A stretch of 44,059 bases of DNA from an uncultured Candidatus Saccharibacteria bacterium. Its GTDB lineage: Bacteria; Patescibacteriota; Doudnabacteria; UBA920. Of the stretch, positions 13,193 through 29,693 are shown in pieces. Location of the stretch: contig CAZYSI010000002.1 of NCBI GenBank assembly GCA_964650345.1, forward strand, positions 1-44,059, written 5' to 3'. The stretch's first letter is position 1; every line of letters begins with the position of its first letter. The notes under the pieces were generated by a model that was not told the DNA's origin, did no database searches, and was given only the letters and a program-made list of their open reading frames with translations. The position numbers and the translations under genes were made by a program.

Positions 13193-13266
13193 AAAACTAC
13201 TAGTTATCTTTTCATTGATCTTGCTTTGTCTCGATTCGTTAAAGAATAACTAGTGGTTTTTTATTT
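13193..13266 (+). terminator. Terminator-like long hairpin after secY
   Basis: 15-bp stem aaaactactagttat (13193-13207) / ataactagtggtttt (13246-13260, one G-U pair). The loop is 38 nt and a T-rich run follows to 13266. Confidence 0.5.
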
Positions 13267-13286
13267 TGCCCAATAGCTCTATAATA

Positions 13287-13295
13287 TGGTATAAT
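13287..13295 (+). promoter_or_regulatory. Extended -10 promoter element (TGGTATAAT)
   Basis: tggtataat lies 62 nt upstream of the 13358 ATG. An overlapping tataat sits at 13280-13285. The same motif recurs at 23189, 31877 and 33508. Confidence 0.5.
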
Positions 13296-13357: not shown

Positions 13358-13762
13358 ATGCTATTTGATCCTAACCGCACTACTGCCAGCGAAAACAAAG
13401 CCAGTGCAGCGAATGATTTAGAAAAAGATAATATTGCTATACAGGGCGAGTTTCGTCCAGAACCAGTCGAAGAACCAGAAGGCTTAGGGGTTGAAACTGA
13501 AAATTTTACTAGTAGGCCACAAAATCCAGAGGAAGTTAAGTTAGCTCCTGATTTGCCCTCAGATGAAGTTGTGCAGCCAACAACCGAAATTCTTGCTCCA
13601 GAAACTATCTTAGAAGAAGATCATACCAAATTGACTGGAGAAAAAGAAGAACAGGCTCGTTTTTTAGAACATCTTCTTGCTGAAGATTCAAAAATTTTAG
13701 ATCCTAATTCAGAAATGGACCCTGCCACATTAAACGATATGGTTGATGGTATATCTCAATAA
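13358..13762 (+). CDS. Hypothetical acidic, Glu/Pro-rich protein (134 aa)
   Basis: ORF sits 28 nt upstream of the ATPase gene on the same strand. Low-complexity acidic composition, no TM helix, no recognised motif. Confidence 0.5.
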   Translation: MLFDPNRTTASENKASAANDLEKDNIAIQGEFRPEPVEEPEGLGVETENFTSRPQNPEEVKLAPDLPSDEVVQPTTEILAPETILEEDHTKLTGEKEEQARFLEHLLAEDSKILDPNSEMDPATLNDMVDGISQ

Positions 13763-13790: not shown

Positions 13791-16346
13791 GTGCCTTTTG
13801 AATTAAGCACCATTGCCATTGCCGGAATAGTCCTAGCCGTTCTAATCGCGGTGTTTTTCGCATTTCTAGCATATTACTTGCATCGCCATTGGTATTACAC
13901 CAAAGTTATCCTGCCGCGCACTAAGAACTGGGTGTTTATGGAAATACAAATGCCGAAAGAGAGCTCTGAAGATAAAAATTCGCAGCTGCAAAATAACGAA
14001 GAGGGCAAGAAGAATCTCATTGCTGTAGCTGAGCAATTATTTACCTCACTTTCGGAAATTAGTCATGAGAATTGGTGGTTTCAGCCGAAAGAGTATATTA
14101 GTTTTGAAATTGCTTGCACTGACAAGAAGATTTCATTTTACATAAACTGTCCTCAGCATTTACAGCAACTCATTGAAAAACAATTGCAGGCTCAGTATCC
14201 GCATTCATTTGTAGAAATTGTTCGGGCATATAATCCTTTCCAAAAAGGTGGACAGGTGGTTGCAACGGAATTACAAACCACGCGTCCATATGTGTTCCCG
14301 ATTCGTACCTATAAAACCATGGAGACTGATCCTTTGAACTCTTTGACTAACGCAATGTCGAAATTAGGCGAAGGGGAAGGGGCTGCTATTCAATTCATAC
14401 TCTCACCTGCAGGGCATCATTGGCAACACAAACCACGCCATATGGCTTTGGAAATTCAGCAGGGAAAGAATCCGGATAAAGTAGTTAAAGGGGTTGGCGC
14501 GCGCGTGGCTTCGGAAGCGTTTTCAACTTTGAAAGACAGCACTCTGGGGAAAAATAATCCTTCCGCAGCAGGACAGCATCATCAAGATTTGTCGGGAATG
14601 TACAGCCCGATTAATCTGACTCCAATGCAGCAGGAGATGGTGAAGCGGTTTGAAGAGAAAGCCAGTCGACCAGGATTTAAAACTAATATCCGGATTGTTT
14701 GTTCATCTGTTAATCCTGGTGCAGCGGCAGTGAATTTGAATAATATTGTTTCATCTTTTTTGCAATACAACATGCCTCCATTTAATGGCTTTCGAATTAA
14801 AAAGCGAGCTCAGGCCTCGATCGTTAAAGATTTTATTTTCCGCATTTACCGCCGCTATGGCAGCAAAGCCATTTTAAATACGGAAGAACTAGCTAGTTTA
14901 TGGCATTTACCAACGCCATTTTTAGAAACTCCGAATATTAAGTGGCTGCAGTCTAAAAAGGCGCCGCCGCCAGTGAATTTGTCAAAAGAGGGAATTTTAA
15001 TTGGCCGAAATATTTACCGCGGGGTGGAAACGCAAATCTTTGCAGATCGAGATGATCGCCGCCGCCACATGTACATTCTGGGACGAACTGGTGTGGGTAA
15101 AACCGAGATCATGAAGTATATGTCTGTGCAGGATATTAAGAACGGCGAAGGATTATGCATTATCGACCCGCATGGTGATTTCATTGAGGATGTGTTACCA
15201 CACATTCCAAAGGAGCGTGCAGAAGATGTAATTTTGTTTGAGCCGTTCGATACTGAGCGTCCAATGGGTTTGAACATGCTCGAAGTTCGCCAAGAAGGGG
15301 AGAAAGATTTTGCGGTACAGGAAATGATCTCGATTTTTTACAAACTGGTGACTGACCCTGCAATGCTAGGGCCAATGTTTGAACACAACATGCGTAACGC
15401 CATGCTGACTTTAATGGCCGACGAAACTCATCCTGGAACCTTAGTAGAAATTCCACGTATTTTTACAGACGTTGAGTTCCAAAAATACAAGATTAGTAAA
15501 TTACAAGATCCAGTGGTGCGAGCGTTTTGGGAAAAAGAAATGGCTAAGACCAGTGACTTTCACAAGTCGGAAATGCTGGGTTACTTGGTTTCAAAAGTTG
15601 GGCGGTTCGTAGAAAATTCCATGATGCGAAATATTGTTGGGCAGCCCAAGAGCGCCTTTAATTTCCGCGATGTCATGGACAATGGCAAAATTTTGTTGGT
15701 GAATTTAGCCAAAGGTAAAGTTGGTGAAATGAATGCCAAGCTGATCGGCTTAATTTTAGTCAGTAAGATTCAAATGGCTGCTATGTCACGCGCGGATATT
15801 CCCGAAGAAGATCGTAAAGACTTTTATTTGTACGTGGATGAATTTCAAAACTTTATTACCGACGCGTTTTCAAGTATTTTGTCTGAGGCGCGAAAGTACC
15901 GCTTGAACTTAATTATTGGCCATCAGTTCTTAGGGCAATTATCGCAAGGAGCGGGTGTTCAAGGCGCAGGTAGCAATGATCTACGTGATGCTGTATTTGG
16001 TAATGCCGGCAGCATGGTCACATTCAGGATTGGCGTGGAAGATGCCGAAATTATGGCCAAGGAGTACGCTCCAGTGTTTAATGACTTCGATTTACTAAAT
16101 GTCGACCGGTTTAATGCTTTTGTAAAGTTAATGATTAACGGCACTGCCAGTAAACCATTTAACATGGCAACATATCCGTTGGAAAAAGCCACCGAAGAAC
16201 AGCGCGCCACTGCCGCAGCCATTCGTCAGTTATCTCGTTTGAAATTTGGTCGTCCACGCGCTGAAGTTGAAGCTGAAATTCTCGAAGCTAGTCGTGTGGC
16301 TGACATGATGGCAGCCGGTGAGGCTGGAATAGAAAAAACCGTTTAG
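13791..16346 (+). CDS. Membrane-anchored FtsK/HerA/VirD4(TraD)-superfamily P-loop ATPase, type IV coupling-protein-like (851 aa)
   Basis: GTG start. N-terminal TM helix IAIAGIVLAVLIAVFFAFLAYYL. Walker A GRTGVGKT (nt 15081-15104), then CIIDPHGDF. Walker B YLYVDEFQNF (Asp-Glu at 15837-15842). C-terminal GNAGSMVTFR pattern as in coupling proteins. Confidence 0.75.
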   Translation: MPFELSTIAIAGIVLAVLIAVFFAFLAYYLHRHWYYTKVILPRTKNWVFMEIQMPKESSEDKNSQLQNNEEGKKNLIAVAEQLFTSLSEISHENWWFQPKEYISFEIACTDKKISFYINCPQHLQQLIEKQLQAQYPHSFVEIVRAYNPFQKGGQVVATELQTTRPYVFPIRTYKTMETDPLNSLTNAMSKLGEGEGAAIQFILSPAGHHWQHKPRHMALEIQQGKNPDKVVKGVGARVASEAFSTLKDSTLGKNNPSAAGQHHQDLSGMYSPINLTPMQQEMVKRFEEKASRPGFKTNIRIVCSSVNPGAAAVNLNNIVSSFLQYNMPPFNGFRIKKRAQASIVKDFIFRIYRRYGSKAILNTEELASLWHLPTPFLETPNIKWLQSKKAPPPVNLSKEGILIGRNIYRGVETQIFADRDDRRRHMYILGRTGVGKTEIMKYMSVQDIKNGEGLCIIDPHGDFIEDVLPHIPKERAEDVILFEPFDTERPMGLNMLEVRQEGEKDFAVQEMISIFYKLVTDPAMLGPMFEHNMRNAMLTLMADETHPGTLVEIPRIFTDVEFQKYKISKLQDPVVRAFWEKEMAKTSDFHKSEMLGYLVSKVGRFVENSMMRNIVGQPKSAFNFRDVMDNGKILLVNLAKGKVGEMNAKLIGLILVSKIQMAAMSRADIPEEDRKDFYLYVDEFQNFITDAFSSILSEARKYRLNLIIGHQFLGQLSQGAGVQGAGSNDLRDAVFGNAGSMVTFRIGVEDAEIMAKEYAPVFNDFDLLNVDRFNAFVKLMINGTASKPFNMATYPLEKATEEQRATAAAIRQLSRLKFGRPRAEVEAEILEASRVADMMAAGEAGIEKTV

Positions 16347-16380: not shown

Positions 16381-17763
16381 ATGGGATTTTCTGAAAAACT
16401 TCAATACGCACATAGCCAAGCGCAGGATGCAAAGGATCATATTCAAGGCAGTATCGACGAGATAAAAGATAAGATTACAGAGAAGGTTGATCCTTTGAAA
16501 GAAAAGGCTACTGCAGTCGCCGATGCTTATCGAGGGGTTAAAACTGGCGCTAAGGAAATAGTTGGTAGAGTTAAAGATACTGCGATGTTGGCGCGTGACA
16601 AAGCAGCAGCTACGCGTGTTGATATTGAAGAGGCTAAAAATGACCTTCAATTTGCTGAGTTTTTGTCAAAATCCGGAAAAGATTTAGATTGGGATGCCGA
16701 ACAGTGGCAAGTTAGAGAAGCGTATGTTCAGTACGAACGAACCAAACATGTAACCGATAAAATTGGTAGTCTATTCACAGAGAAGCTGCAGAATGTAGTG
16801 GGCGATAGTCCAGAAGTTCGGTCGTTAATTTCCGACCATCTCATTGAGTTGGCTAATACTAACCCCTCAGAGTTGATAAAATTGGAACGTTACGCTAATG
16901 CCGTGTCTGAAAGTCAAAAGCAAATACTAGAGAAGCAAGCTGAGATTGATAAGTTAGCCGGTGATTTTGCGGGTGATTCAAGCAGAGAAGCAATGCAAGA
17001 TAAGTTAACTACTTTAAAAAAATCAAAGAGCATAAAGGGTCGCATTCTTCAGAAAATCGATAAAGTAGGTTTGGCTAATGAATATATGCTTGCCTCAGAA
17101 AGTGCGAGGAAAAATTACAATCTTGGATCAAGGCGTGAAATTACTGCTGAAATAAAACAGCTGAGAAAAGGCATTAAAGGGATTAAGAAATTAGAAGATG
17201 CTCAAACTGAGATTCGTAACAAGTTTGCCTTTGAGCGTGCCCAATTATTTTTAGATAGTGATTCTGCAAAGGATATCCATAGTCGACTAGAAGCCATTAT
17301 AAATCAGAAGTTCGCAGAATTATCTGCGACGCCTAGTCTAGGCAACACTAAACGACTTCATAAAGCTCACCGGGCATTGCGTACTGAGTTTGAAAATGAA
17401 GGAAGTATTGTACGTACTGGTATTGGTAAAAGAATTTTGAATGATTCCTTAAATAGTCCTACCGAAATAGTAGGTCGGAGTACAAGAGATTTGCTTGCTG
17501 ATGAAAATTATTTGGAGGGCGAGATCGAGGAGCGGGTTGTAAGAAGGTTAAAGACTTTAGTTGAAAATAGTTCAAATGACCAGTTATCTGATGAAGTAGA
17601 TAAGTATTTTAAAAAACAGCAGTTCGCAGGTGCATCCCCAAAGAAGTCAGCAGAGAAAGTTTGGGGGGCGTTGAATCAGGTACGTGATAGATTTTCTGTC
17701 ACAGACCCTAATCGAGTACGCGTTGATTGGTTGCTGAGGAAATTAGAATTTAGAACAGCATAG
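16381..17763 (+). CDS. Hypothetical coiled-coil protein (460 aa)
   Basis: Long Lys/Glu/Ala-rich heptad-like helical sequence. Tightly linked to the ATPase upstream and to the next ORF (2-nt gap). Confidence 0.65.
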   Translation: MGFSEKLQYAHSQAQDAKDHIQGSIDEIKDKITEKVDPLKEKATAVADAYRGVKTGAKEIVGRVKDTAMLARDKAAATRVDIEEAKNDLQFAEFLSKSGKDLDWDAEQWQVREAYVQYERTKHVTDKIGSLFTEKLQNVVGDSPEVRSLISDHLIELANTNPSELIKLERYANAVSESQKQILEKQAEIDKLAGDFAGDSSREAMQDKLTTLKKSKSIKGRILQKIDKVGLANEYMLASESARKNYNLGSRREITAEIKQLRKGIKGIKKLEDAQTEIRNKFAFERAQLFLDSDSAKDIHSRLEAIINQKFAELSATPSLGNTKRLHKAHRALRTEFENEGSIVRTGIGKRILNDSLNSPTEIVGRSTRDLLADENYLEGEIEERVVRRLKTLVENSSNDQLSDEVDKYFKKQQFAGASPKKSAEKVWGALNQVRDRFSVTDPNRVRVDWLLRKLEFRTA

Positions 17764-17764
17764 T

Positions 17765-18061
17765 ATGAATAAATTTGATATTGATAATTTTATAGAGTTG
17801 GTAGAAGCGAATAAGTTGGATGATGCTAGTCAGAAACTTGGTAATTATTTTGATAAACTTACACCAGCGGAAAAAGGAAAGGTCTATGTAGATATTGCAG
17901 GTATTTATATGCGCATGATTGCTGAAAATAACATGCGTTTGGTAGAATTTTTAGATGCTCAATTGGCTCGGTTGAGAGAAATAGATGAAATTGAGTCTAA
18001 CGCTAGTAATCAGATTAAAGATAGATTTGATTTAGCAGATCTTAGAAAAAAGCTGCAATAG
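17765..18061 (+). CDS. Hypothetical small helical protein (98 aa)
   Basis: Starts 2 nt after the previous stop. No recognised motif. Confidence 0.55.
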   Translation: MNKFDIDNFIELVEANKLDDASQKLGNYFDKLTPAEKGKVYVDIAGIYMRMIAENNMRLVEFLDAQLARLREIDEIESNASNQIKDRFDLADLRKKLQ

Positions 18062-18084
18062 TAAGAGTTTGATAGTTTACTTTT

Positions 18085-18112
18085 AAAATCCCCTTTAAAT
18101 AAAAGGGATTTT
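18085..18112 (+). terminator. Weak terminator-like hairpin
   Basis: aaaatccc (18085-18092) / gggatttt (18105-18112), 12-nt loop. The stem is AT-rich, so this is a low-confidence call. Confidence 0.4.
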
Positions 18113-18136
18113 AAATATTCTTAAAAATACTAAACC

Positions 18137-18165
18137 TTGACAAAACGTCTTAAATTTGCTATAAT
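18137..18165 (+). promoter_or_regulatory. Consensus sigma70 promoter of the lectin cassette
   Basis: TTGACA (18137-18142), 17 nt, TATAAT (18160-18165), with TGC immediately upstream of the -10. Confidence 0.75.
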
Positions 18166-18299
18166 TTGCTAAATTTGAACAATAGTAGCTGCTGACTTAT
18201 TTTTCCGGAAATGTTGGTTAAAAGCCTGTATTTCCGGCAAAGTAATCCTTTGCCTGTACATTCCAAATTAAATACTTTCTTACTAAGGAGCATACTGTA

Positions 18300-19610
18300 A
18301 TGGCAACATCACGAACCGACGTTGAAGCTGTTGTTGAGTTCTTTGATCCCAACAACAAAACCAAGTCAGATAAGAGCGGCAGAAATTACCCGCAGTATGG
18401 GTTTCTGTTCGTAATTGATGACGGGACTAGGATACCGATTCAAGACGAGGGTCTTGACGCGGCTATTAGTCCACAGCTCCGTAGAGATAATATCTTTACG
18501 GTGGATATTGTTGCTGATCCTACTAATCCCACAAGGGACAAAGTAAAAGCAACCAACTTTCGGTTTGTTAGAACCGAAGCCGGCGCTGCAGACAGCGCTA
18601 AGGCCAAATTCAAACCTGCCAAATCTGGTGCTCCTACACCTTCCTCAACAAAGGCCGACAAGGCCGATCCCAAACAAAATACTGAAGAGCTTTGGCGGCT
18701 CGAGGTAATGGGTGAACCAGTCGGAGGCGATAATAGCGGCGAATGGACAATATCCGTGGAGTTGGATAAAAACAACTACCCGGTACCAGACGCCAAGATC
18801 AAATTCCGTGCTGGATCGACAAGTTTCGTTGGGACGACCGGTCCCGAAGGCTGCATCGAACAGACCATAACTGTTTCAGATAATACGTATGGGCGGGTCG
18901 TTTACGACTCATCCCTGAGTATATCTGGAATACCGATTGCTGGACCAGATAAAGCTGTTGCCCCTAAGCGTAAGCTTACGGGTTGGCACTGGTTTAACAA
19001 TTTTTTGTATGGTTTTTGGACTGCTGTGCTTGTGCTTTCGATCATTCTGTGGGTACGGGCGGGTTATGTGGAGCTCACAACGCCTTACTCGCAGACCAAA
19101 TCGGTCAGCACAACACAGCAGGACAACGGCCGACCTAAGTTTTCTTGGGACAAGACTCAGCAACCTGCTCCAGAAACGGAGCAGGCAGCAGTAAGTTGGG
19201 GTGGTTACATTTGGAGCTGGACTCCAATGGGATCATTCCTCATTTTGCTACTCTGGTTCTTCCTTTGGATTATTTTGTTTCCGATTTGTTTCGGAGCGGA
19301 GATCTGGGAAGCTTTGCTGAATCAGTACCAAAAAAGCAAAGGCGCTATCGAGGCTTGGCGTCATACGCGTGAACCATTCCAGTATACCGTCGAGGTTATC
19401 CGGAATGGCGGCAAAATCGCTCAGAAACCGGTGTATATGTACAACGGCGAAAAAGTGAATAAGCCCGAGACGCGCTCGGAAGCGATGAGTTCGCTGAAGA
19501 ATATGAAATTCGGCGATATCAAAGAATTTATCAAGTTCGATTTGTTGTCGGATCTCGGCGTAATGCTATTCGACCGCTTCGTGCTTGGCAGACTATTTGG
19601 AGGAAGGTAA
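18300..19610 (+). CDS. Hypothetical two-TM membrane protein with N-terminal soluble domains (436 aa)
   Basis: AAGGAG lies 7-8 nt before the ATG. Soluble N-terminal ~230 aa with a Lys/Ala/Pro linker. TM helices FLYGFWTAVLVLSIILWV and FLILLLWFFLWIILFPICF. Confidence 0.7.
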   Translation: MATSRTDVEAVVEFFDPNNKTKSDKSGRNYPQYGFLFVIDDGTRIPIQDEGLDAAISPQLRRDNIFTVDIVADPTNPTRDKVKATNFRFVRTEAGAADSAKAKFKPAKSGAPTPSSTKADKADPKQNTEELWRLEVMGEPVGGDNSGEWTISVELDKNNYPVPDAKIKFRAGSTSFVGTTGPEGCIEQTITVSDNTYGRVVYDSSLSISGIPIAGPDKAVAPKRKLTGWHWFNNFLYGFWTAVLVLSIILWVRAGYVELTTPYSQTKSVSTTQQDNGRPKFSWDKTQQPAPETEQAAVSWGGYIWSWTPMGSFLILLLWFFLWIILFPICFGAEIWEALLNQYQKSKGAIEAWRHTREPFQYTVEVIRNGGKIAQKPVYMYNGEKVNKPETRSEAMSSLKNMKFGDIKEFIKFDLLSDLGVMLFDRFVLGRLFGGR

Positions 19611-19611
19611 C

Positions 19612-20661
19612 ATGGATACGTGGAAAAAAGTTGGAATCGCAGTGGTACTTCTGCTGCTGGTCGTTGTTGGTATTTTGATCTTCAAGGCCTTGGTCATGAA
19701 GTATTTCGATCTGACGCTGTCGTTGGTCTTTGTTTTGTCGGCATTCGTGCTGGCAGCGATCGCGCTAGCGTTCATTCACTTTTTTGCTCCTGAGAGCTCT
19801 CGCAGCTTTCTGACGAGTGGAGTTGTCGTGATGCTGGTTCTGTTCTGCGGGTGGTCAATCTATGCAGGCACTAGTCCAGTAGCGGCTAAAACCACGAAAA
19901 AAGGGATCGCGGCTCACTTTCTTAACTTCGCCAAAAATTTGTTGCCGGACAATTCAGCTAATGATGAGGTTACTCATCAGGCTGATATGGACTGCGACGA
20001 AGCAACTGCGGAGTTTCGCTATAATGTCGAGCAGAAATTGCTGGACAATTATAAGCAGGATGGCGATGTTGATAAGTACCTCCGTGCCCGAGCAGAATTG
20101 CAGGAGAAGTTGATGAAGAACACTGCTTTATGCAGTTCGGCATCACGTTCTTCGGTTACTCCTTCCTCGACGCCCGCGCCGGCGAGTACTCCCGCCTCAA
20201 CAACTTCTTCAACTAGCATGGTAGCAACTACGGGAACAACCAAAGTTTTCGTGGATGCTACTCGGTACAATGGAGTCGGGTCGGTTCAATTGATTTCTGG
20301 ACGAAAGTTCGAAATTAAAGGGACAGGCACGGCGGTGTGGAAAAATATTCCCGTAGGAAATCCGACAAAGTATGAATCTTGCGGTCCGGAAGGCACTTCG
20401 CCAACTGCATCGGTCAAGATGACCCGTGAGGAGTACTTCTCCAATATCGGGGACTACTTATGTCCTACGGCTCTCAAGGGTGCGCTCATTGCCAAAATTG
20501 GCAACGGGGCGTGGTTCCCGGTCGGAAAAAACTTTCAGGGGGTAGCCCAGAATGATGGGGTGCTGACTTTAGCGGTCAACGATCTTGATCCGCAAAAGCA
20601 GCCCACGTCGAACTGGGCAGACAATGGTGGTGGGTTCTCGGTGGCGGTCATCGTACACTGA
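19612..20661 (+). CDS. Membrane-anchored protein with C-terminal PA-IL (LecA)-like lectin domain
   Basis: I prefer the ATG at 19612 (GGAGGAAGG taa c ATG; SD at 19599-19603) over the 19585 ATG in the ORF track. Three N-terminal TM helices, then a Ser/Thr/Pro linker (SSVTPSSTPAPASTPASTTSSTS). The C-terminus reads CGPEG...GALIAKIGNG...GVLTLAVND...DNGGGFSVAVIV, resembling P. aeruginosa LecA as I recall it. Confidence 0.7.
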   Translation: MDTWKKVGIAVVLLLLVVVGILIFKALVMKYFDLTLSLVFVLSAFVLAAIALAFIHFFAPESSRSFLTSGVVVMLVLFCGWSIYAGTSPVAAKTTKKGIAAHFLNFAKNLLPDNSANDEVTHQADMDCDEATAEFRYNVEQKLLDNYKQDGDVDKYLRARAELQEKLMKNTALCSSASRSSVTPSSTPAPASTPASTTSSTSMVATTGTTKVFVDATRYNGVGSVQLISGRKFEIKGTGTAVWKNIPVGNPTKYESCGPEGTSPTASVKMTREEYFSNIGDYLCPTALKGALIAKIGNGAWFPVGKNFQGVAQNDGVLTLAVNDLDPQKQPTSNWADNGGGFSVAVIVH

Positions 20662-20675
20662 AGCCTATTTCACTG

Positions 20676-20716
20676 AAAGGGTTAGCGGATATAATTCGCT
20701 GACCCTTTTTATTTTG
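20676..20716 (+). terminator. Rho-independent terminator closing the lectin cassette
   Basis: aaagggttagcg-gatataatt-cgctgacccttt (one G-U pair) followed by ttattttg. Confidence 0.8.
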
Positions 20717-20741
20717 TCTAAGCACTAATTGCTTATATAAT
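20714..20741 (+). promoter_or_regulatory. Promoter candidate for a leaderless mRNA
   Basis: TTGTCT (20714-20719), 16 nt, TATAAT (20736-20741). The ATG at 20749 is only 7 nt downstream. Confidence 0.5.
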
Positions 20742-20748
20742 ATAGATT

Positions 20749-21687
20749 ATGTTGTTATCTTTTTTGAAGAAAAATTTTTATCTACATGAACTGATAATTA
20801 TCCCAGCTTTTATTGGGAGTGTAGGATTGAGTTGGTATTTTAGTCAAAATTACAATTGGTTGCCTCCATTTGCAGAATGGGTAATGCTAATTGCTTTGAT
20901 GTTTTTTATTGGTTTTGTATGTGTAAAAATTGCAACTGTTGGAATTAAGTTATTTTTTAAGTCTGAGATTGCTCAAAACAAATTTAATTATATAAAAACT
21001 TTCCGATTTATTAGAATTTTTTTTGCTATTTTTGTGTTGTTAATAATATATGAGAATTTACAACTCATTATTCCATCAATCGCTCCAACGCTTCAGGACC
21101 CTGCCTTGTTGTATTATGATGAACTGTTATTTGGTTTTTATCCGACTGATCCGTGGATTATGAACCTTGCCAATGTGTATCTCACAGAAATAATGAACGC
21201 AGTATACCTAACTTTCTATTTCTATATCCCTATTATTGCTCTGTTACTGTATGTTCAAAATTCGATTTCCGAAGCTTTGCGTTTTACGTTAGTAATGGTC
21301 ATTGCATTTCTAATCGCATTTGGACTTTATATATTAGTTCCCGGTATAGGACCCTTGTACTATCTTAAAGGTCAATTTCCTGTTGAATTAGACGGAACAT
21401 TGGTGAATTTAGTGCAGGGTATATTGCAGACCAGTGGAATTCCTCGCAATGTTTTTCCCAGCTTACATGTCGCTGGTAGTGCTATTCCGCTATACTTCTT
21501 TTACAAGAACTCTAAACCGTTGTTTATAGTTTGCTTGCCGGTCATTATTTTGTTGTGGCTATCGACCGTTTATTTGAGGTTGCATTACATTATTGATGTC
21601 TTTGCGGGGTGGTTTTTAGCAATTGTTTGCATAGCGCTTGGAACCTATTTATTTACGAAATGGAATGAAAAAACATTGGTTGATTAG
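20749..21687 (+). CDS. PAP2_C-type (sphingomyelin/IPC-synthase-like) lipid phosphotransferase family membrane protein
   Basis: Polytopic membrane protein with FPSLHVAGS and RLHYIIDVFAGW. These match the SGH / HYxxDVxxG signature of the PAP2 superfamily. Confidence 0.7.
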   Translation: MLLSFLKKNFYLHELIIIPAFIGSVGLSWYFSQNYNWLPPFAEWVMLIALMFFIGFVCVKIATVGIKLFFKSEIAQNKFNYIKTFRFIRIFFAIFVLLIIYENLQLIIPSIAPTLQDPALLYYDELLFGFYPTDPWIMNLANVYLTEIMNAVYLTFYFYIPIIALLLYVQNSISEALRFTLVMVIAFLIAFGLYILVPGIGPLYYLKGQFPVELDGTLVNLVQGILQTSGIPRNVFPSLHVAGSAIPLYFFYKNSKPLFIVCLPVIILLWLSTVYLRLHYIIDVFAGWFLAIVCIALGTYLFTKWNEKTLVD

Positions 21688-23185
21688 TTTGTGTTTAGTG
21701 GTTGCCATAATGGCCACTCTACAAATCCCTAACCGAACTCGGTTAGGGGATCCAGACGGGTTTTATCATGCCAAGGCTTCGCAGCTGCTGGAACAAGGAA
21801 ATTTATCAGATACTTTTCCGTACTTAGCATATACCACGTGGAAAGATGGTTATGCTGACCAACACTACCTTTATCATGCACTGCTGATTCCGTTTAATAA
21901 CGTGGATTCTTTGTTCCTGTCCATAATAATATTCGCTAGTCTAGCAGCCCTTGCCTTTTATTTGCTGTTTTCAGTATTGATGGTGAAAAGCAAGCTCTGG
22001 TGGCTACTAATTTTGATGCTGGGTTCAACTGACTTTTTGTTTCGTATTAATTTGGTTAAAGCCAACACGCTATCTTTAGCTTCGTTAGCAGCAATCATAT
22101 ATTTGCTGTGGAAGTGGCATGAAAAAAACAATTATTGGGTTGCTGCGGCAATTGGCGTTGTTAGTTTTTTGTTTGTATGGATTTACGGTGGGTTTGTGTT
22201 TGTCCCTGTAGTATTAGCTTTATATGTACTTTCAGTACTAATAACAGAGCGAAAATTTGATTACCTACCAGGACTTGCCAGTGCACTCGGCATAGTCATT
22301 GGATTACTCGTACATCCACATAACTCACATTTACTAGTTTTACTTTATGATCAGATTTTCCGGGCTGGGCTTGGTGCTGGAGCAGTTCCTGTGGGTAATG
22401 AATGGCTCCCTTTTAATATAGATTGGTTTTTAACTAGCAACATTCCATTGTTGTTGGTCTGGGTTTTAAGTTTAGCCGCAGTAATGGCTAAGATTTGGCA
22501 CAAACAAATTAGTTGGCTGGAGTTGTGGCTGCAGCTCATTGCTGTAGCTTTGTTGCTGTTAACCTTGCGTCATCGTCGGTTCATTGAATACTTTACGCCG
22601 TTTGCAGTATTATCAGCCAGTGTAGTTCTGACACCGTATTTGGCTAAATTAAATTGGCAACAAATTAAACTGAGCATAAAACAACACTGGCAATTAGGTT
22701 TTTCCGCTGGGTTTGTAGTTTTCCTAGTCGCTTCAGCATTTCTATACAACTTCCAGCACGTGTATGATTACTTGCAGGGTGGGGAAGAGACTCATCGGTT
22801 TGAAGAAGTTGCCCAGCAAATTTATACTCACAGTCAACCAGGTGACATTGTAATTAATACTCAGTGGGATCAGTTTCCGCAATTGTTCTATTGGAATAGT
22901 AAAAGTTATTACCCAATTGGGTTAGACCCGACGTTTATGTACATCTATAATGCAGATTTGTACTGGGATCTGCGCAAGATTGCCGATGATAATGAGAGCG
23001 ACTGGGAGTCTGTTGAATATTTGCATTCAATCGCCAGCAAAACTTTGAAAGGCAAGTTTTTATTCTTAGATGCAAATCGTAATATTAATATTCATAAGTA
23101 CATTCAAGAGCACGATACAGAGCAAAAATACTTCCAATTGATCTATGATTTAGACAACGTGGTAGCTTACCGTATTTTGCCGTAA
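21665..23185 (+). CDS. GT-C fold (ArnT/PMT-like) membrane glycosyltransferase candidate
   Basis: About 12 TM helices. The first extracytoplasmic loop reads GDPDGFYHAKAS (acidic DxD-like motif). There is a large C-terminal soluble domain. I prefer the ATG at 21665 (MKKHWLISL); the track start at 21638 is also possible. The gene overlaps the PAP2 gene. Confidence 0.55.
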   Translation: MKKHWLISLCLVVAIMATLQIPNRTRLGDPDGFYHAKASQLLEQGNLSDTFPYLAYTTWKDGYADQHYLYHALLIPFNNVDSLFLSIIIFASLAALAFYLLFSVLMVKSKLWWLLILMLGSTDFLFRINLVKANTLSLASLAAIIYLLWKWHEKNNYWVAAAIGVVSFLFVWIYGGFVFVPVVLALYVLSVLITERKFDYLPGLASALGIVIGLLVHPHNSHLLVLLYDQIFRAGLGAGAVPVGNEWLPFNIDWFLTSNIPLLLVWVLSLAAVMAKIWHKQISWLELWLQLIAVALLLLTLRHRRFIEYFTPFAVLSASVVLTPYLAKLNWQQIKLSIKQHWQLGFSAGFVVFLVASAFLYNFQHVYDYLQGGEETHRFEEVAQQIYTHSQPGDIVINTQWDQFPQLFYWNSKSYYPIGLDPTFMYIYNADLYWDLRKIADDNESDWESVEYLHSIASKTLKGKFLFLDANRNINIHKYIQEHDTEQKYFQLIYDLDNVVAYRILP

Positions 23186-23188
23186 ATA

Positions 23189-23197
23189 TGGTATAAT
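23189..23197 (+). promoter_or_regulatory. Extended -10 element (TGGTATAAT)
   Basis: tggtataat lies 24 nt upstream of the 23222 ATG. Confidence 0.5.
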
Positions 23198-23221
23198 TAA
23201 TGCGATAATTAAACCCAAAAC

Positions 23222-26200
23222 ATGTTGTTTCGCATAGGCGAGAGAAGTGGTTCTGATTTTGAAACAAAGCTAGATCCGGAGCGAAAACCGAGTGAAAATA
23301 TTAATGAGCTTGAGCAAACTAAAGCTGCTGAGGTTGATTTTGAAATAGGCAAAGAAGCAAAAGGTAAAGAAGGTATTAATGAACGTTTAGAAGAAGAATT
23401 GGGTGTCGTTGCAGAAAAAATTATTTCAAATAACGATGACTTAGAAAATTTAATAGAGAGTAATTTTTCAGACCGGTCACCAGAGGAAAAACAAAAAATT
23501 CTAGAACAACTGCAATCCGCAGCTGGCAAAGAAGAATTTAAGGGTCATGTTAAGGAGTTTTTGACTAAGTCCTTACCAAAAGATTTTACTGTAGGCGCTT
23601 TGGCTGGTTTCGCAGCTCCGCTAATAGCCAAGATAGCAGTTAAAAATTCAGCACGGGCTTTACTTGCTAGTAAAACATTTGGAGTGAGTGTGGCTGCTGG
23701 CGCGATCGCTAACGCTGTTGTTGAACCATTGAGACATTGGATTCGCAATAAAGAAAAAATTGTTGCAAAAGATATTGAATGGCAATTAGCAGCCGCTCAG
23801 TCGTCGGAGCAGCAAGCCGCTATTATCGCTCAGACCCAGAAAAGTTTGGAGGCAGGTCGGTTTCGTAAAGAGGACGAAGCTGGTGTTCGAGCACTATTGC
23901 AAGAACAGCTTGTAAAGGTACATTTAGAAACAAATAAAGAAGGTTTGGAAGGCAAGGATAAGGTTTTACAAATACTGGAAATTTCAAAATCTACCCGACG
24001 TGCTTTGTTTACGAAAGAGGGCAGGGCAGTGCGAAAGCTAATTAATAGCGTTGAGCTGCTTACTGAAAAAAATAAGGTTGGTTATAAGGAGCTAGCTTCA
24101 GCTTCACTTAAAGGCGCTCTTACTGGCGCTGTGGGGGGCGCTGTGGGGGGCGCACTTCATTATTTCCTTGTCGATGCCGGGTACGGCCAAAAAGCCGTCG
24201 ATGTTATCGGGGAGAAATTAAAGGCTGGTTGGTCTGTTTTGCGAAATATGAAAGGCAGTGGTGGCCCTGCGTTGGCATTTATTAACCCAACCTTAGCAAC
24301 TACTCTTTACGGGGAAGTAAGTAACTACGCTCCAGATGTTCCGGAGAAAGAAATTCCCGACGCTGTTAAGCAGGTCATTGCTAACAAAGCTGAGCAGTCT
24401 TTTACAACAGCACCACAAGGATTGTCGGAGATAAAGGACAAACTAGCAGAACAGGCGTTTTATTCTGATTTAGAGCAGGGTAATGGGGGAACGCATTTGG
24501 CTCGAAAAGCATTACATGATTACAGGGTTAATCTAATTAAATCCGGCGATCCTGATGCTGCAAATCTCTCTACTGAACAATTAATCTTCGCAGAAAATTG
24601 GTTTATTAAGCATAAGTTAGATAAATATGTTGAAGAAGGTGCGGATCATGCCTTTAAGCTAGGGGAGGAAGTAAAACCCTTTGATGGCGCAGATTTGAGA
24701 GAGGCAATTGAGGAAGCAAAAAAACTGAATGAGGAACAGCTAAAGAATTTGCACAAATATGTAGACAAGCTTTCTGAAAAAACCATTCACGAAATGCACG
24801 ATTTACAGAATTTTGAAAATGCAGCGAATGACTATACTAAAAACATTCAATCGCCGCAGCCAGATCAAAGTAATGTCGCACCGGGCACTAACCCTGCAAT
24901 AAGTCCAACACCTGAAAACTATGACAATTATCATCCAGACCCGTTAACCGATGAGGAGCGTAAAGCTATAAATGATTCGCAAGATCGTTTTCAAGAAGAT
25001 CAAGCTACTGGTGGTTCTGAGATAGATAAGCAGATTGAACAGTATTATGAGGACAACAAAGACACTGGTCTGAATGAATCAGAAAAAAATATTGAAAGCA
25101 TTAATTCTAAATTAATTGCAATTGCTAAACTAAATCTCATGGGAGGCATCTTGCTTGGTGGGGCTGCAGCAGGGTTTTATATGTTCAAGAAGTGGCAAAA
25201 AGAACGCCCTACTCCTGAGCAAAGTAGAGAGGCGATTGAACAGCTGCTACGCCAAAGAGAACTAGAGGTTGAGCTGGGAGAAGGCGTGACCGATAAAGAC
25301 ATACATAAGCAGTACAATAAATTAATTCGGGCCATAGAACAAGATTACGCTTATGGTGGTTTAGCAAATCTTGCCGGTAAAAAAATTGTATTAGAAAAAG
25401 CGCATAGTGCTAAGGAGCCCTGGGTAGATCATACTGACCCCGAGGTAATTCATTTACCTGTTTCTGTAAAACTTGATAAGTTAGAAAGGTTTATTAATCA
25501 GCTAGATGATGATGCAATCGATCAAGCTAAAGAGTTTTCAGAACGAAAATTATATGAAGCGGGTGATATTATGTTAGATTTGGAGGATGAGTTTCAAATA
25601 AGAATTAGGTTCATTAACAGAGGTCCGAATGGAGTAAGTTCACAACAATTAATTGACAACCTCGATCGATTCAGAAACGCTTTGCGTGACTTACCAGCAG
25701 AGGATTTGCACGGGACGAACTTCGTTCTAACTTATGCCTTAAATGAGCTCGATAAGTCAAGCGGAGATATCTACATAGATGTGGTAAGGCAAACCGATGA
25801 AGAACTATCAAAAGAACTAAGGCAGTTACTTGGGTTAGCCGAAAATATTGAATCTGGAAGTGGTGCTCCAATTTTGGCTGAGCCAGTTTTTGAAGACGAA
25901 CCAGAAGATGTTGATGAGCCTGACTCGTCTGGTATTGTAGAACCAGAAATTAATCCGGTCGAACAAGCTAGACAGGAGATTCAATCTGAATTCAATGAAA
26001 TAGAACGAAAGCATGGTATGAATATAGCTTTGGCTAATGATAAAACCGCAGAATTATTAATGCGCGACCGCAATTTAATGTTTAATTTGCAAGACGGCAT
26101 TGAAGATGCGAGTCGATTCTATCCAGGGATGTTTTATCCTTTCGAAGGTTTTAAAATAGTTCTTGATGATAAATGGGCTTTAGAAAAAGGGGTGCGCCAT

Positions 26201-27895
26201 ATTAACATAAAACAAGGTACACCAAAGCAAATTGCAGATTTTTTAGTTGACCCAGTGAGAGCATTGCGACGTAATAATGAGCCTGCAGCAAGTGGGGTTG
26301 ATAGCATTGAAGTGCGCAATATCGAAGGTAATGAATCAAATCGATTCTTCGAAGAGAATGAAGTTCAGATTCATGGCTCAGCCTATGAATTTAGTCCAGG
26401 TTCTTTTGCTAAACTTGAGGTTAAAGATTTAGTTGACGCAGGCTTAGAACCAAAGCATACAGTTGTTGTAGGAAGTACTGAGTTGAGAGTTTCTCAGCCT
26501 TATAATTTAGACAACGGTCGTCTGGCAGCGATGGTCTATGTGAAGCAAGGCGATGTTTATGTTCCTCGTTCCTATTACAAAAGTAATTCAGCTGTATCTT
26601 GGCGTTATTTGCCTACATATAGTAGAGAGTATGACCCTGAAACAGATCGTTACAATCGTCATTACGATAAAGGCTATGACGAGGATAGTTTAGATGCTAC
26701 TTGGGAAGTGCAAATGGCTTTAACTAAGATCGCAGCAGAACCGAATAATATTATCAATACTCCAAAGGATCCAGAATTCTATATGTTTGGGACATGTTGG
26801 GAGAAAGACAAAGATAATACTTATCAATTTTCGGTTGACGAGTTAGGTGAAACCTATAATGGTCAGTTTAAAGTACCTGAAAGTGATCGGCAGAAGCACG
26901 AAAATGTAGGCGGGTTTTTGGAATTTACTGGTGTGAATAAACTCGAGCCAGAAAAGGTTGGTTTTGCTAATCACGCTTTTAATCCGAACTTTGCTGAAGG
27001 TCCAATAGCGGAATGGCCTGACTATAGCCACATTTATGGTGCGATCACTAATAGGGTTTTTCAGAGTAAAAATAAGCAGCTTACTTATGTGATTCATGAA
27101 AGCGCAGAGGGAAAGGTGTGGATGAACATTCAGACTAATACTGAATTAACTCCAGTTGGTGTGAGGAAGAAGTGGTTTGATGGCGGAGACTTAACCTCAC
27201 CTGCGTATGAATACAAATATCCTAAGATTTCGAATAGTGGTGAATCTTATGTCTACGATCAAACTGGAGGTTATGGTGATGATTCCGATAGAAGAGGTAG
27301 TTATGTTGACATGTTTAAAAACTACAATAGCAAAATTCCTATTATTAAAGAGTATCGGGAATGGAGAAATAATCCACCCGCATCGCCACAGCCAGAGTTA
27401 GTTATTGAACCAGAGCCGGTTAAGCCTAAGCAAGCAGCTTCGTCTCCTCGAGATAGAACCCTGAAGCCAACTCCAGAAAGCCTTCGTAGCTACCCAATAG
27501 GTATTGATTCTGCGCCAGCAACTGAAGCCTGGGATCTCCTTCACTCGGAATCTAAAGAGAATCCATTTCGATCAAATATTGATGATGTTGTTCCACAGCT
27601 TAGCCAACTGGAAAATTGGGTTAATGAGCAAAGAGACTTCAGTGTAATTTACCCTGAATCTCCAATTGTAAAAGCATTTGAAATGCTGAACACGCTATTC
27701 GATTTTTATTCTGATGACGACCGAGCTCGTTCAACTGTTTCCTGGTTACGAGATACTATTAGACAGTTAAACCGCGTAAGTATGAGGCGAGCAGAAGAGC
27801 AAGCCAATGCTAATTTGGGTCGCGATAATTCAGAAGACCCAATTCCTAAAGTAAAGACCAATCGCTTAGAACGAAAACATGGTAAGAAGGAATAG
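23222..27895 (+). CDS. Giant multi-domain membrane protein (1557 aa), function unknown
   Basis: Uninterrupted 4.67-kb ORF. Hydrophobic Gly/Ala-rich segments: FTVGALAGFAAPLIAKIAV, GALTGAVGGAVGGALHYFLV, LMGGILLGGAAAGFYMF. Acidic coiled regions and an aromatic-rich C-terminal region of ~350 aa. No family motif recognised. Confidence 0.8.
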   Translation: MLFRIGERSGSDFETKLDPERKPSENINELEQTKAAEVDFEIGKEAKGKEGINERLEEELGVVAEKIISNNDDLENLIESNFSDRSPEEKQKILEQLQSAAGKEEFKGHVKEFLTKSLPKDFTVGALAGFAAPLIAKIAVKNSARALLASKTFGVSVAAGAIANAVVEPLRHWIRNKEKIVAKDIEWQLAAAQSSEQQAAIIAQTQKSLEAGRFRKEDEAGVRALLQEQLVKVHLETNKEGLEGKDKVLQILEISKSTRRALFTKEGRAVRKLINSVELLTEKNKVGYKELASASLKGALTGAVGGAVGGALHYFLVDAGYGQKAVDVIGEKLKAGWSVLRNMKGSGGPALAFINPTLATTLYGEVSNYAPDVPEKEIPDAVKQVIANKAEQSFTTAPQGLSEIKDKLAEQAFYSDLEQGNGGTHLARKALHDYRVNLIKSGDPDAANLSTEQLIFAENWFIKHKLDKYVEEGADHAFKLGEEVKPFDGADLREAIEEAKKLNEEQLKNLHKYVDKLSEKTIHEMHDLQNFENAANDYTKNIQSPQPDQSNVAPGTNPAISPTPENYDNYHPDPLTDEERKAINDSQDRFQEDQATGGSEIDKQIEQYYEDNKDTGLNESEKNIESINSKLIAIAKLNLMGGILLGGAAAGFYMFKKWQKERPTPEQSREAIEQLLRQRELEVELGEGVTDKDIHKQYNKLIRAIEQDYAYGGLANLAGKKIVLEKAHSAKEPWVDHTDPEVIHLPVSVKLDKLERFINQLDDDAIDQAKEFSERKLYEAGDIMLDLEDEFQIRIRFINRGPNGVSSQQLIDNLDRFRNALRDLPAEDLHGTNFVLTYALNELDKSSGDIYIDVVRQTDEELSKELRQLLGLAENIESGSGAPILAEPVFEDEPEDVDEPDSSGIVEPEINPVEQARQEIQSEFNEIERKHGMNIALANDKTAELLMRDRNLMFNLQDGIEDASRFYPGMFYPFEGFKIVLDDKWALEKGVRHINIKQGTPKQIADFLVDPVRALRRNNEPAASGVDSIEVRNIEGNESNRFFEENEVQIHGSAYEFSPGSFAKLEVKDLVDAGLEPKHTVVVGSTELRVSQPYNLDNGRLAAMVYVKQGDVYVPRSYYKSNSAVSWRYLPTYSREYDPETDRYNRHYDKGYDEDSLDATWEVQMALTKIAAEPNNIINTPKDPEFYMFGTCWEKDKDNTYQFSVDELGETYNGQFKVPESDRQKHENVGGFLEFTGVNKLEPEKVGFANHAFNPNFAEGPIAEWPDYSHIYGAITNRVFQSKNKQLTYVIHESAEGKVWMNIQTNTELTPVGVRKKWFDGGDLTSPAYEYKYPKISNSGESYVYDQTGGYGDDSDRRGSYVDMFKNYNSKIPIIKEYREWRNNPPASPQPELVIEPEPVKPKQAASSPRDRTLKPTPESLRSYPIGIDSAPATEAWDLLHSESKENPFRSNIDDVVPQLSQLENWVNEQRDFSVIYPESPIVKAFEMLNTLFDFYSDDDRARSTVSWLRDTIRQLNRVSMRRAEEQANANLGRDNSEDPIPKVKTNRLERKHGKKE

Positions 27896-27896
27896 G

Positions 27897-28211
27897 TTAA
27901 CGGCGATAGGAATCGTGGATAATTTTTAGTTCCTGTTCTATTGCTTCATCAATAGTTTTTAGTAGGCCAGGAACTTGAGAAGTGATATAAGAAATTTTTT
28001 CTTCTTTTTGTGGAGAGGGTAACTTTAGAGCGTCTTGATAATCTTCAGCTTGTTGTTCAGTTAATTGGGAAATCGTTACTTCAGTAATTAGGTTATCAAA
28101 GTGGCTGACAAGGGCTTTCACTGTTTCTGCTTTATCTTCATTAGATACGTTAATATCTAGAGCCGCTAAAAGCTCACGAGGGTTAATGTGTAGATTATTA
28201 ATCAAACTCAT
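27897..28211 (-). CDS. Hypothetical small acidic helical protein (104 aa)
   Basis: Convergent with the giant gene; the two stops are separated by 1 nt. A TGATATACT extended -10 lies 6 nt before its ATG. Confidence 0.55.
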   Translation of the reverse strand: MSLINNLHINPRELLAALDINVSNEDKAETVKALVSHFDNLITEVTISQLTEQQAEDYQDALKLPSPQKEEKISYITSQVPGLLKTIDEAIEQELKIIHDSYRR

Positions 28212-28217
28212 ATTTAA

Positions 28218-28226
28218 AGTATATCA
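28218..28226 (-). promoter_or_regulatory. Extended -10 (TGATATACT on minus strand), leaderless-type
   Basis: The minus strand reads ttGATATACTttaaatATG. The hexamer ends 6 nt before the start codon at 28211. Confidence 0.45.
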
Positions 28227-28241
28227 AAAGTTGTACTAAAC

Positions 28242-28272
28242 AAAAAAGCCCATATCAACAAATATGACATGG
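28242..28272 (-). terminator. Rho-independent terminator for the 28362-29396 gene
   Basis: Minus strand: CCATGTC-atatttgtt-GATATGG (7 bp including one G-U pair) followed by GCTTTTTTG. Confidence 0.65.
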
Positions 28273-28361
28273 AGACTTTTCGTTTAATTGTCTAATTCTT
28301 TTGCTATTTACTTTCCACCACTGTTTTACAGGGGCCAATTCCAATAGCATCTGAATTAAAT

Positions 28362-29396: not shown

Positions 29397-29573
29397 GGTT
29401 TTCCTCTATTTGACTTAGAAATGTGCGGGTAGTCTGTATAGCGCTGGAACGCTGACCTTTTATCCCTTAAAGCTCCAGTTTCCGACAATTTTCTAGGATT
29501 TACTAGAAATTAGCTGAAACCAAAGCTCTAATGTAGTTTTATTTAATACAGTGCATATTTTAGCACATTTAGC

Positions 29574-29602
29574 TTGACTTGTCAAGTCTTTTGTGTTATA
29601 TT
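29574..29602 (+). promoter_or_regulatory. Sigma70-like promoter with palindrome over the -35
   Basis: TTGACT (29574-29579), 17 nt, TATATT (29597-29602). The palindrome CTTGAC-TT-GTCAAG (29573-29586) overlaps the -35. Confidence 0.6.
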
Positions 29603-29693
29603 AAATTGTTCTAAAAGCTGCATTTACTGTGATTTTTAGAGCAAAACAGTTAATTTTGTACATTTTCAACCTGTTCTGGAGGAACATTAGACT

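Follow-up and report, generated by a model that had tools for sequence, protein, structure and literature searches.

The window considered here is a 44,059-nucleotide stretch of DNA (contig CAZYSI010000002.1, positions 1 to 44,059, forward strand; assembly GCA_964650345.1) deposited as an uncultured Candidatus Saccharibacteria bacterium and placed by GTDB in the Doudnabacteria of the Patescibacteriota, and our subject is one of its genes, which encodes a membrane-anchored ATPase resembling the coupling proteins of type IV secretion systems (T4SSs). The gene content of the window is like that of a Patescibacteria (Candidate Phyla Radiation) chromosome, with EF-Tu and an S10/spc ribosomal operon ending in secY, and further with dnaX, ruvX, tpiA, rpiB, rpe and a split transketolase. 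The open reading frame (ORF) of the ATPase and its predicted parts are as follows (TM, transmembrane; AF2, AlphaFold2).

13791 to 16346, plus strand: ATPase gene, 851 aa, GTG start; DUF8128 joined to a predicted VirD4/TrwB-type coupling-protein ATPase of the short 'S' subfamily
13812 to 13868, plus strand: single N-terminal TM helix, aa 8-26, hydropathy 3.11, conserved in homologues
13929 to 14990, plus strand: DUF8128 N-domain, aa ~47-400 (~350-360 aa), alpha/beta (PF26449, AF2, Foldseek, hhalign)
14991 to 16190, plus strand: predicted nucleotide-binding domain of a type IV coupling protein (T4CP) with an inserted all-alpha domain, aa ~500-632 (Pfam, PDB TrwB, AF2 model)

The GTG start is backed by an N-terminus, 'MPxELxTI...', that is kept in 46 homologues. 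All four motifs on which the original prediction relied (a reading of the DNA and its translated ORFs made before this analysis) are present in the 851-aa translation: GRTGVGKT, the Walker A motif (aa 431-438, nucleotides 15081-15104); CIIDPHGDF (aa 456-464); YLYVDEFQNF (aa 679-688, nucleotides 15825-15854), which overlaps the Walker B motif FYLYVDEF (aa 678-685, nucleotides 15822-15845); and GNAGSMVTFR (aa 737-746, nucleotides 15999-16028). A GHQ motif lies at aa 710-712. The membrane anchor proposed at the same time is real, in that one predicted TM segment spans aa 8-26 and the AF2 model has one long N-terminal helix at aa 7-46; but the hydropathy scan gives one strong segment only, where T4CPs typically have two, so that the anchor is present and the topology atypical. 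From the positive residues that follow the helix, the protein probably lies with its N-terminus outside and its C-terminus inside the cell, with DUF8128 in the cytoplasm.

Domains of the ATPase

The C-terminal part of the protein was assigned by several kinds of search. Pfam TrwB_AAD_bind (PF10412) matches aa 423-726 over model positions 14-295 (37.3 bits against a cut-off of 20.5; E = 1.9e-9), and DUF87 (PF01935) matches aa 424-475 (32.5 bits against 23.2; E = 1.2e-7), while the best NCBIfam matches are TraD and VirD4-like models. A sequence search of the PDB returned TrwB (1e9r, 3.2e-8 over aa 419-726) and then DotL and HerA, an order repeated by a 46-sequence family profile, which did not find VirB4 (TrwK) in the PDB. 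Foldseek searches with the full-length AF2 model, whose predicted local distance difference test score (pLDDT) is 70.9, had TrwB, DotL and Cag-beta among the top matches; between Walker A and Walker B, the model has eight helices at aa 502-630 (pLDDT there only 52-67), and this predicted insertion is the all-alpha domain of T4CPs. By its sequence, the ATPase belongs to the VirD4/TraD/TrwB branch of the FtsK/HerA superfamily, which upholds its earlier placement in the FtsK/HerA/VirD4 clade, and its best profile match is to a T4CP family rather than to any non-translocase P-loop family. A candidate role as an anti-phage defence ATPase was rejected: the PADLOC model mad8 (MADS) matches the ATPase alone (8.9e-16), none of the eight scanned neighbours matches a PADLOC model, and the mad8 match is read as generic family similarity.

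The ~400 aa that separate the TM helix from the P-loop had been described as a large region without a recognisable motif. The stretch exists as described, but its domain is catalogued, as DUF8128 (PF26449). This assignment is a precomputed annotation and was not recomputed; it stands on the cluster of the window protein, on all 120 of its listed homologues and on L001, one of the homologous loci considered below. The local copy of Pfam contains no PF26449 model, and hmmscan was for this reason empty over the N-domain. A conserved linker, LNTEELASLWHLPTP..ETPNIKWL (nucleotides 14874-14918 onward), closes the domain. The N-domain alone, used as a query, retrieved 2,066 clusters at 50% identity; most of those of full length measure 800-1,100 aa, and the domain is thus essentially always fused to this ATPase. 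Literature searches on 'PF26449' and 'DUF8128' found none.

Structure prediction yielded a confident domain whose predicted fold is like that of the VirB4 N-domain. Modelled alone by AF2 from a diverse alignment, the N-domain has a pLDDT of 88.3 and a predicted template modelling score (pTM) of 0.86, and its top 14 PDB matches in Foldseek are all TrwK/VirB4 chains of plasmid R388 (E from 6.9e-7 to 2e-3, probability 0.99-1.0, TMq 0.40-0.44), beyond which the E-values climb to noise. With the full-length model, VirB4/TrwK is again the best match, co-linear over ~940 aligned columns (3.8e-15). Sequence homology between DUF8128 and VirB4 was considered and rejected, as there is no profile signal, which leaves similarity at the level of the fold.

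Relatives on plasmids and in Patescibacteria

The same architecture occurs on conjugative plasmids. In a tblastn search of PLSDB, 690 records matched the window ATPase; near-full-length matches (~aa 50-830, 75-88% of the query, 22-31% identity) come from Bacillus and its relatives, Streptomyces, Embleya and haloarchaea, and the records include Sulfolobus plasmids too. On a 24.7-kb plasmid of B. subtilis (NZ_CP032854.1), an 886-aa homologue annotated 'DUF87' (WP_121549396.1) is followed by Replic_Relax, in a cluster with further conjugal-transfer genes, among them TcpE and VirB4 (AAA_10, 3e-116); an Embleya plasmid (NZ_CP108778.1) has PrgI, a VirB4-like gene, the T4CP WP_331738717.1, Replic_Relax and NlpC/P60, in this order. 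When the DUF8128 profile was aligned by hhalign to the N-regions of these plasmid T4CPs, the probability was 97.2% for Bacillus (3.4e-11) and 94.8% for Embleya (4.9e-8), and a linker, 'EELA..hLP', is common to the window ATPase and the plasmid proteins. These profile matches indicate that DUF8128 is the usual N-domain of a long T4CP subfamily in monoderm and archaeal conjugation systems, in which a separate VirB4 coexists with it. On monoderm conjugative plasmids, this architecture serves as the coupling protein and lies beside a Replic_Relax relaxase-like gene and VirB4.

In Patescibacteria, the gene sits in a different setting. More than 3,000 homologues of the window ATPase were found, and the top 120 listed are all full length and 70-100% identical; in a survey limited to one genome per GTDB species, full-length homologues that are 48-88% identical occur in metagenome-assembled genomes named as Doudna-, Falkow-, Buchanan-, Kerfeld-, Magasanik- and Parcubacteria. 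For synteny, ORFs were called and clustered in the window and 81 homologous loci (82 in all), and across several classes the order is a small ORF, the ATPase, optional genes of 77-183 aa, a 201-aa protein, GtrA and dnaX. The 201-aa family is present in 60/82 loci, GtrA in 46/82 and dnaX in 53/82, always downstream and on the same strand. The conserved positions on either side of the window gene are as follows.

13358 to 13762, plus strand: acidic small protein, 134 aa, net charge -23, Pro/Glu-rich, probably disordered; positionally conserved upstream ORF
31969 to 32574, plus strand: 201-aa protein (synteny)
32574 to 33212, plus strand: GtrA-family membrane protein (synteny; Pfam)
33526 to 35070, plus strand: dnaX (synteny; Pfam)

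The downstream block also includes ruvX, at 36742. The 201-aa protein is without a match in Pfam, NCBIfam or the PDB and is very strongly conserved across the Patescibacteria classes, with a core 'EGVFDGQNMIGPDGKQYPVPANYASKSKLVEGDVLKLTI..DGSFIYKQIGPVER' and a median identity of 70%, equal to that of the ATPase. Upstream, secY and the L15 gene adjoin in only 35/82 loci, including the window, and other classes have cysS and a CorA-like gene in their place; the adjacency to secY is therefore clade-specific, and nothing ties it to secretion. It had been thought unusual that a stand-alone ATPase of this kind should lie next to secY, a view that does not survive the comparison, because the orphan state is the rule for the family and secY is its neighbour in a minority of loci.

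As regards its rate of divergence, the ATPase behaves like a component of the core genome. In one set of loci, the median identities to the window copies are 71% (ATPase), 69% (SecY) and 66% (L15); in a second set, the ATPase stands at 70% and DnaX at 44%. The divergence of the ATPase correlates with that of SecY (rho 0.74) and of DnaX (rho 0.86). There are no relatives of the ATPase in IMG/VR. To judge by these comparisons, the S-type ATPase is a vertically inherited, strongly constrained core gene of Patescibacteria, about as conserved as SecY and L15.

The original prediction also held that relaxase, VirB4, VirB6 and pilin genes are lacking nearby, and this stands at both scales at which it was examined. 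In the window, the scanned ORFs (those at 13358-43579 together with EF-Tu and the TPR protein, leaving out two minus-strand ORFs of 104 aa, 27897-28211, and 95 aa, 39396-39683) contain no relaxase, VirB4, VirB6, T4SS or pilin family by Pfam, with NCBIfam and PADLOC run on subsets, nor is there any backbone of a T4SS or integrated conjugative element. The sole hint of a T4SS-type function in the window is a sub-threshold SLT domain (20.7 bits against a cut-off of 21.3) in a 691-aa membrane protein at 29694-31769. Within 10 kb of the 81 homologous loci, jackhmmer searches seeded from the plasmids found no VirB4, Replic_Relax, TcpE, PrgI or VirB6-like gene. The Patescibacteria ATPase has shed the T4SS neighbourhood of its plasmid relatives and become a housekeeping-grade core gene.

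A matrix of bit scores splits the DUF8128 ATPases into two groups, S (~800-860 aa), to which the window protein belongs, and L (~920-1,130 aa), which includes the protein P0274. Pairs of S proteins score 590-890 and pairs of L proteins mostly 650-980, with P0268 as a lower outlier, as against ~420-530 for pairs across the two groups, and both groups keep Walker A and the Walker B motif FYLYVDEF. The two can occur together: at one locus (L087, 3273-8985), a 102-aa ORF is followed in tandem by an S gene (806 aa) and an L gene (994 aa), and at another (L075) a fragment of L type (21589-22362) lies ~9 kb from the S gene. Such adjacency hints that the paralogues form a hetero-oligomer or divide their labour.

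This split bears on the experimental data available for Candidatus Southlakia epibionticum ML1, which has two such large genes, SEML1_0293 and SEML1_0142, both core and Patescibacteria-enriched (Wang et al. 2023; PMC10633639, Tables S1 and S2). SEML1_0293 (921 aa, PF10412 at aa 402-719) is non-essential, with normalised reads of 5817 > 2940 > 1372, and SEML1_0142, an ATPase of 1,019 aa annotated 'TraM recognition domain' whose P-loop domain spans aa 381-800, is essential by transposon sequencing (Tn-seq), as are the 139-aa ORF directly upstream of it (SEML1_0141), a canonical FtsK (SEML1_0096) and the T4SS genes of this organism (PMC10633639). P0274 (930 aa) carries DUF8128 and lies in the same topA-sigma-T4CP context as SEML1_0293, and because this orthologue is of L type we place SEML1_0293 in the L subfamily; the non-essential phenotype, the sole experimental result identified here that bears on the family, would accordingly concern the L paralogue and not the S type of the window. 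Published discussions of the T4SS consider only the non-essential SEML1_0293, and the order of SEML1_0141 and SEML1_0142 mirrors that of the small ORF and the ATPase in the window.

Neighbouring genes and the variable island

In 67 loci, the ATPase is preceded at a distance of less than 200 nt by a same-strand ORF of less than 200 aa, which takes two forms. One, as in the window, is acidic and Pro/Glu-rich and measures 82-196 aa (mostly 110-150); the other is ~170 aa long and bears the C-terminal motif 'LIPGVNKFFLEQEAKIKTDKI'. In loci of Falkow-, Buchanan-, Magasanik- and Parcubacteria type (L060-L081), the second form has a conserved amphipathic C-terminus, 'W.+LIPGVNKFF.EQEAKIKTDKI'. At a Kerfeldbacteria locus (L067, 9437-12514), the ~170-aa form is in frame with the ATPase in a single ORF of 1,025 aa, a fusion that suggests a physical link between the upstream protein and the ATPase. 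With jackhmmer, no similarity was found for the acidic 134-aa protein, even in a relative whose ATPase is 88% identical. Inspection by eye shows a C-terminal helical pattern in two parts in many of the acidic copies. Its strict sub-motif is present in 12/53 copies (0.43 in shuffles), and the copy in the window conforms to the looser pattern only.

Both operon flanks named in the original prediction, the 134-aa and 460-aa genes, exist, and the small ORF is conserved in position, but the 460-aa gene is not a conserved partner: its product has no jackhmmer homologue in the 81 loci, and hhalign to its positional equivalents gives a probability of 35%. The remaining features around the ATPase gene are these.

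13266 to 13295, plus strand: candidate sigma-70-like promoter, TTGCCC-18-TATAAT with TG, in the spacer between secY and the 134-aa gene (p134)
16381 to 18061, plus strand: 460-aa helical coiled-coil protein (16381-17763) and 98-aa protein, separated from the preceding genes by gaps of 34 nt and 1 nt
18091 to 18107: terminator-like hairpin
16381 to 31769: variable island, ~15.4 kb, between the ATPase and the 201-aa gene

The 460-aa and 98-aa genes are probably co-transcribed in this genome and are lineage-specific, homologues of the 98-aa protein being found only in the two loci L002 and L003. A perfect 12/12 sigma-70 consensus with extended TG (TTGACA-17-TATAAT) lies at 18137-18165, just past the hairpin and ahead of the gene of a 436-aa membrane protein, and is unusual in that other candidates in the region match 9-10 of 12 positions. 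The two promoter-like sites and the hairpin would fit a candidate transcription unit made up of p134, the ATPase and the 460-aa and 98-aa genes; such patterns are not above chance overall, with 16 promoter-like sites found across the region and 15.1 expected.

The island occurs only in the near clade of the window, and in most relatives the 201-aa gene begins ~0.1-1 kb past the ATPase. Its GC content is 0.45-0.47, as against ~0.40-0.43. Its content varies among relatives, the 98-aa protein, a lectin-like membrane protein, giant acidic proteins and an SLT-like membrane protein recurring in divergent form. In the window it holds the coiled-coil and 98-aa proteins, two membrane proteins (one with a weakly PA-IL lectin-like C-terminus), PAP2, a 9-TM GT-C-like protein, a 1,557-aa acidic giant (net charge -73), a minus-strand 344-aa anchored protein, and the 691-aa protein with the sub-threshold SLT domain, which has 4 TM segments. 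Farther along the window, the transketolase is divided between an N-terminal gene (40403-41245) and a C-terminal gene (42587-43579), with an unrelated 432-aa ORF between them (41260-42558) that has no Pfam match and a weak NCBIfam match to an SMC-related model.

Function and comparison with known systems

On balance, and with moderate confidence, we read the window gene as a chromosomal, vertically inherited T4CP of the VirD4 family, the S paralogue with DUF8128, that feeds a distant T4SS. Orphan T4CPs in Patescibacteria were reported in 2025, when 5,713 T4CP homologues were counted in 2,918 genomes, only 148 of them near virB4 (PMC12102498). Because the orphan state is the rule for the family, a T4SS elsewhere in this same genome is likely; the one Doudnabacteria-class genome visible in Table S1 of that study is VirB4-positive (PMC12102498). 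By analogy with characterised coupling proteins, the function would most parsimoniously be to feed a chromosomal MPF-FATA-like T4SS.

In such a mechanism, the ATPase would form a membrane-anchored hexamer, as TrwB does, and would use ATP to recruit a macromolecular substrate and drive it to the MPF-FATA-like T4SS encoded elsewhere in the genomes of most Patescibacteria, with DUF8128 perhaps serving as the docking surface to the membrane complex and the small acidic upstream protein as an auxiliary factor, a regulator or a substrate. The proposal is based on the T4CP hexamer (TrwB) and on T4CPs that work with auxiliary proteins (PMC12857230), and Cag-beta, a T4CP that carries CagZ as a bound regulator, offers a precedent (PDB 8dol, among the Foldseek matches). 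Because relaxases are nearly absent from the phylum, with only 109 homologues in 103 genomes (PMC12102498), the substrate is more likely to be protein than relaxase-bound DNA.

Several observations weigh against this reading. T4SS components are missing both from the window and from the 10 kb around each of the 81 homologous loci, and the conserved neighbours (the 201-aa protein, GtrA and dnaX) have no known T4SS role. That the T4SS of S. epibionticum is essential and its recognised T4CP, SEML1_0293, is not argues against obligatory coupling of the two, at least for that paralogue. The likeness of DUF8128 to the VirB4 N-domain would be one of fold only (TMq ~0.43) and not proven homology, given that the DUF8128 profile finds nothing in the PDB (no TrwK) and aligns to a Gram-positive VirB4 with a probability of 0.2%. 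Finally, the hexamer, the substrate and the partner binding are drawn by analogy.

A possible, though more doubtful, explanation is that the translocase has been exapted, such that the S-type ATPase and its acidic partner serve as a stand-alone, T4SS-independent housekeeping motor for the export or import of DNA or another polymer. Its conservation at housekeeping level in a core chromosomal block and its absence from the vicinity of T4SS genes in 81 loci would suit such a motor, as might the arrangement in S. epibionticum, where a second T4CP-like gene, the essential SEML1_0142, is directly 3' of the essential 139-aa ORF, a gene order also seen in the window. Streptomyces TraB is described as a T4CP able to function with no further T4SS subunits (PMC12857230), the ATPase has weak NCBIfam matches to CedD (1e-5) and CedB (6e-5), and exaptation is allowed for in PMC12102498 because the ML1 T4CP is non-essential. 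However, a single TM helix gives no obvious channel, no conserved polytopic partner adjoins except GtrA, whose known role differs, and the closest characterisable relatives are plasmid T4CPs beside VirB4-type T4SSs. A bolder form of this idea, which we consider unlikely, is that the S-type ATPase and the acidic protein constitute a T4SS-independent, essential membrane machine specific to Patescibacteria, the counterpart of SEML1_0141/SEML1_0142, derived from a plasmid coupling protein with a VirB4-like N-domain; if so, the S subfamily would be a living intermediate between VirB4 and VirD4, and the cargo of the machine could be a macromolecule from the host or the cell envelope instead of conjugative DNA.

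The other alternatives have less in their favour. Membership in the FtsK/HerA superfamily, the DUF87 match and the presence of dnaX (33526) and ruvX (36742) in the conserved downstream block might point to a protein that segregates chromosomes or repairs DNA in place of FtsK or HerA, but this is very improbable: the protein matches neither FtsK_SpoIIIE (PF01580) nor the gamma domain (PF09397) nor the 4TM region (PF13491) and has only one TM helix, it has no HAS barrel match and no NurA-like neighbour, the DUF87 signal is confined to the generic P-loop region, NCBIfam HerA models score only 0.0036-0.077, every search places HerA behind TrwB and DotL, and S. epibionticum retains its essential FtsK (SEML1_0096) besides the T4CP-like genes. 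Still less probable is that the gene encodes the VirB4-type core ATPase of a divergent T4SS. This would account for the structural searches, in which the full-length model is topped by TrwK/VirB4 and the N-domain alone matches only VirB4 chains; but sequence profiles find T4CPs and not VirB4, there is no match to AAA_10, CagE_TrbE_VirB or P-loop_TraG at E<=0.1 (in contrast to the 3e-116 on AAA_10 of the true VirB4 from a Gram-positive plasmid), the plasmid homologue coexists with a separate VirB4, and a TM anchor together with an all-alpha domain is what T4CPs have. We give least credence of all to the possibility that the gene is a remnant of a decayed integrated conjugative element, of which the 15-kb island would be the remainder. 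A variable island of slightly raised GC lies directly downstream and relatives in the gene family are plasmid-borne, but the position of the ATPase is shared by several classes, its conservation equals that of SecY and its Walker motifs are intact, whereas the island varies and is lacking in most relatives; the window contains no tRNA, and no integrase or relaxase family was found among the scanned ORFs. For the ATPase itself, an origin in such an element or in a prophage was rejected on the same scans and on the lack of IMG/VR relatives.

The orphan state of Patescibacteria T4CPs was already known and the family catalogued; what is new here is the split into S and L, the fold of DUF8128 and its kinship with plasmid proteins, the conserved small upstream ORF, and conservation at the level of SecY. 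Patescibacteria live as obligate epibionts and have very small genomes, so that a gene which they conserve like SecY likely matters for their lifestyle. In the one tractable species, the T4SS is essential yet is without a recognised coupling protein and relaxase, and the role of the dispersed T4CP-like ATPases would tell whether it moves DNA, proteins or something else.

Compared with TrwB, VirD4 and TraD, the window protein likewise has a membrane-anchored FtsK/HerA-superfamily domain, an inserted all-alpha domain, Walker A and B motifs and the 'GHQ..QL' motif. It differs from TrwB of plasmid R388 in having one TM helix instead of two, in carrying the ~350 aa of DUF8128 between anchor and ATPase, and in being encoded by a core chromosomal gene, not on a plasmid or integrated element, with no relaxase or T4SS genes nearby. 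The long T4CPs of plasmids share its overall architecture, including a DUF8128-like N-domain, but have Replic_Relax directly 3' and a cluster with TcpE or PrgI and VirB4, none of which occurs at the window gene. With VirB4/TrwK (R388; PDB 7o42, 8rtd), its best structural matches, it shares an N-terminal alpha/beta domain joined to a C-terminal ATPase; but VirB4, the signature of a complete T4SS, has no TM anchor, and the two are without sequence-level similarity, at TM-scores of ~0.4. Streptomyces TraB, FtsK/SpoIIIE and archaeal HerA and Ced belong to the same ATPase superfamily, and TraB (PMC12857230) and the Ced motors, represented here by the weak CedB and CedD matches, move DNA without a VirB-type channel; the window protein differs from this group in giving no FtsK_SpoIIIE, gamma-domain or HAS-barrel signal and in scores far below those of T4CPs. 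SEML1_0293 of Ca. Southlakia epibionticum ML1 is of L type, has other neighbours and is non-essential in Tn-seq, whereas the window protein is of S type, yet both are Patescibacteria proteins that combine DUF8128 with TrwB_AAD_bind; the gene of SEML1_0293 lies far from the T4SS cluster and is flagged as core and Patescibacteria-enriched.

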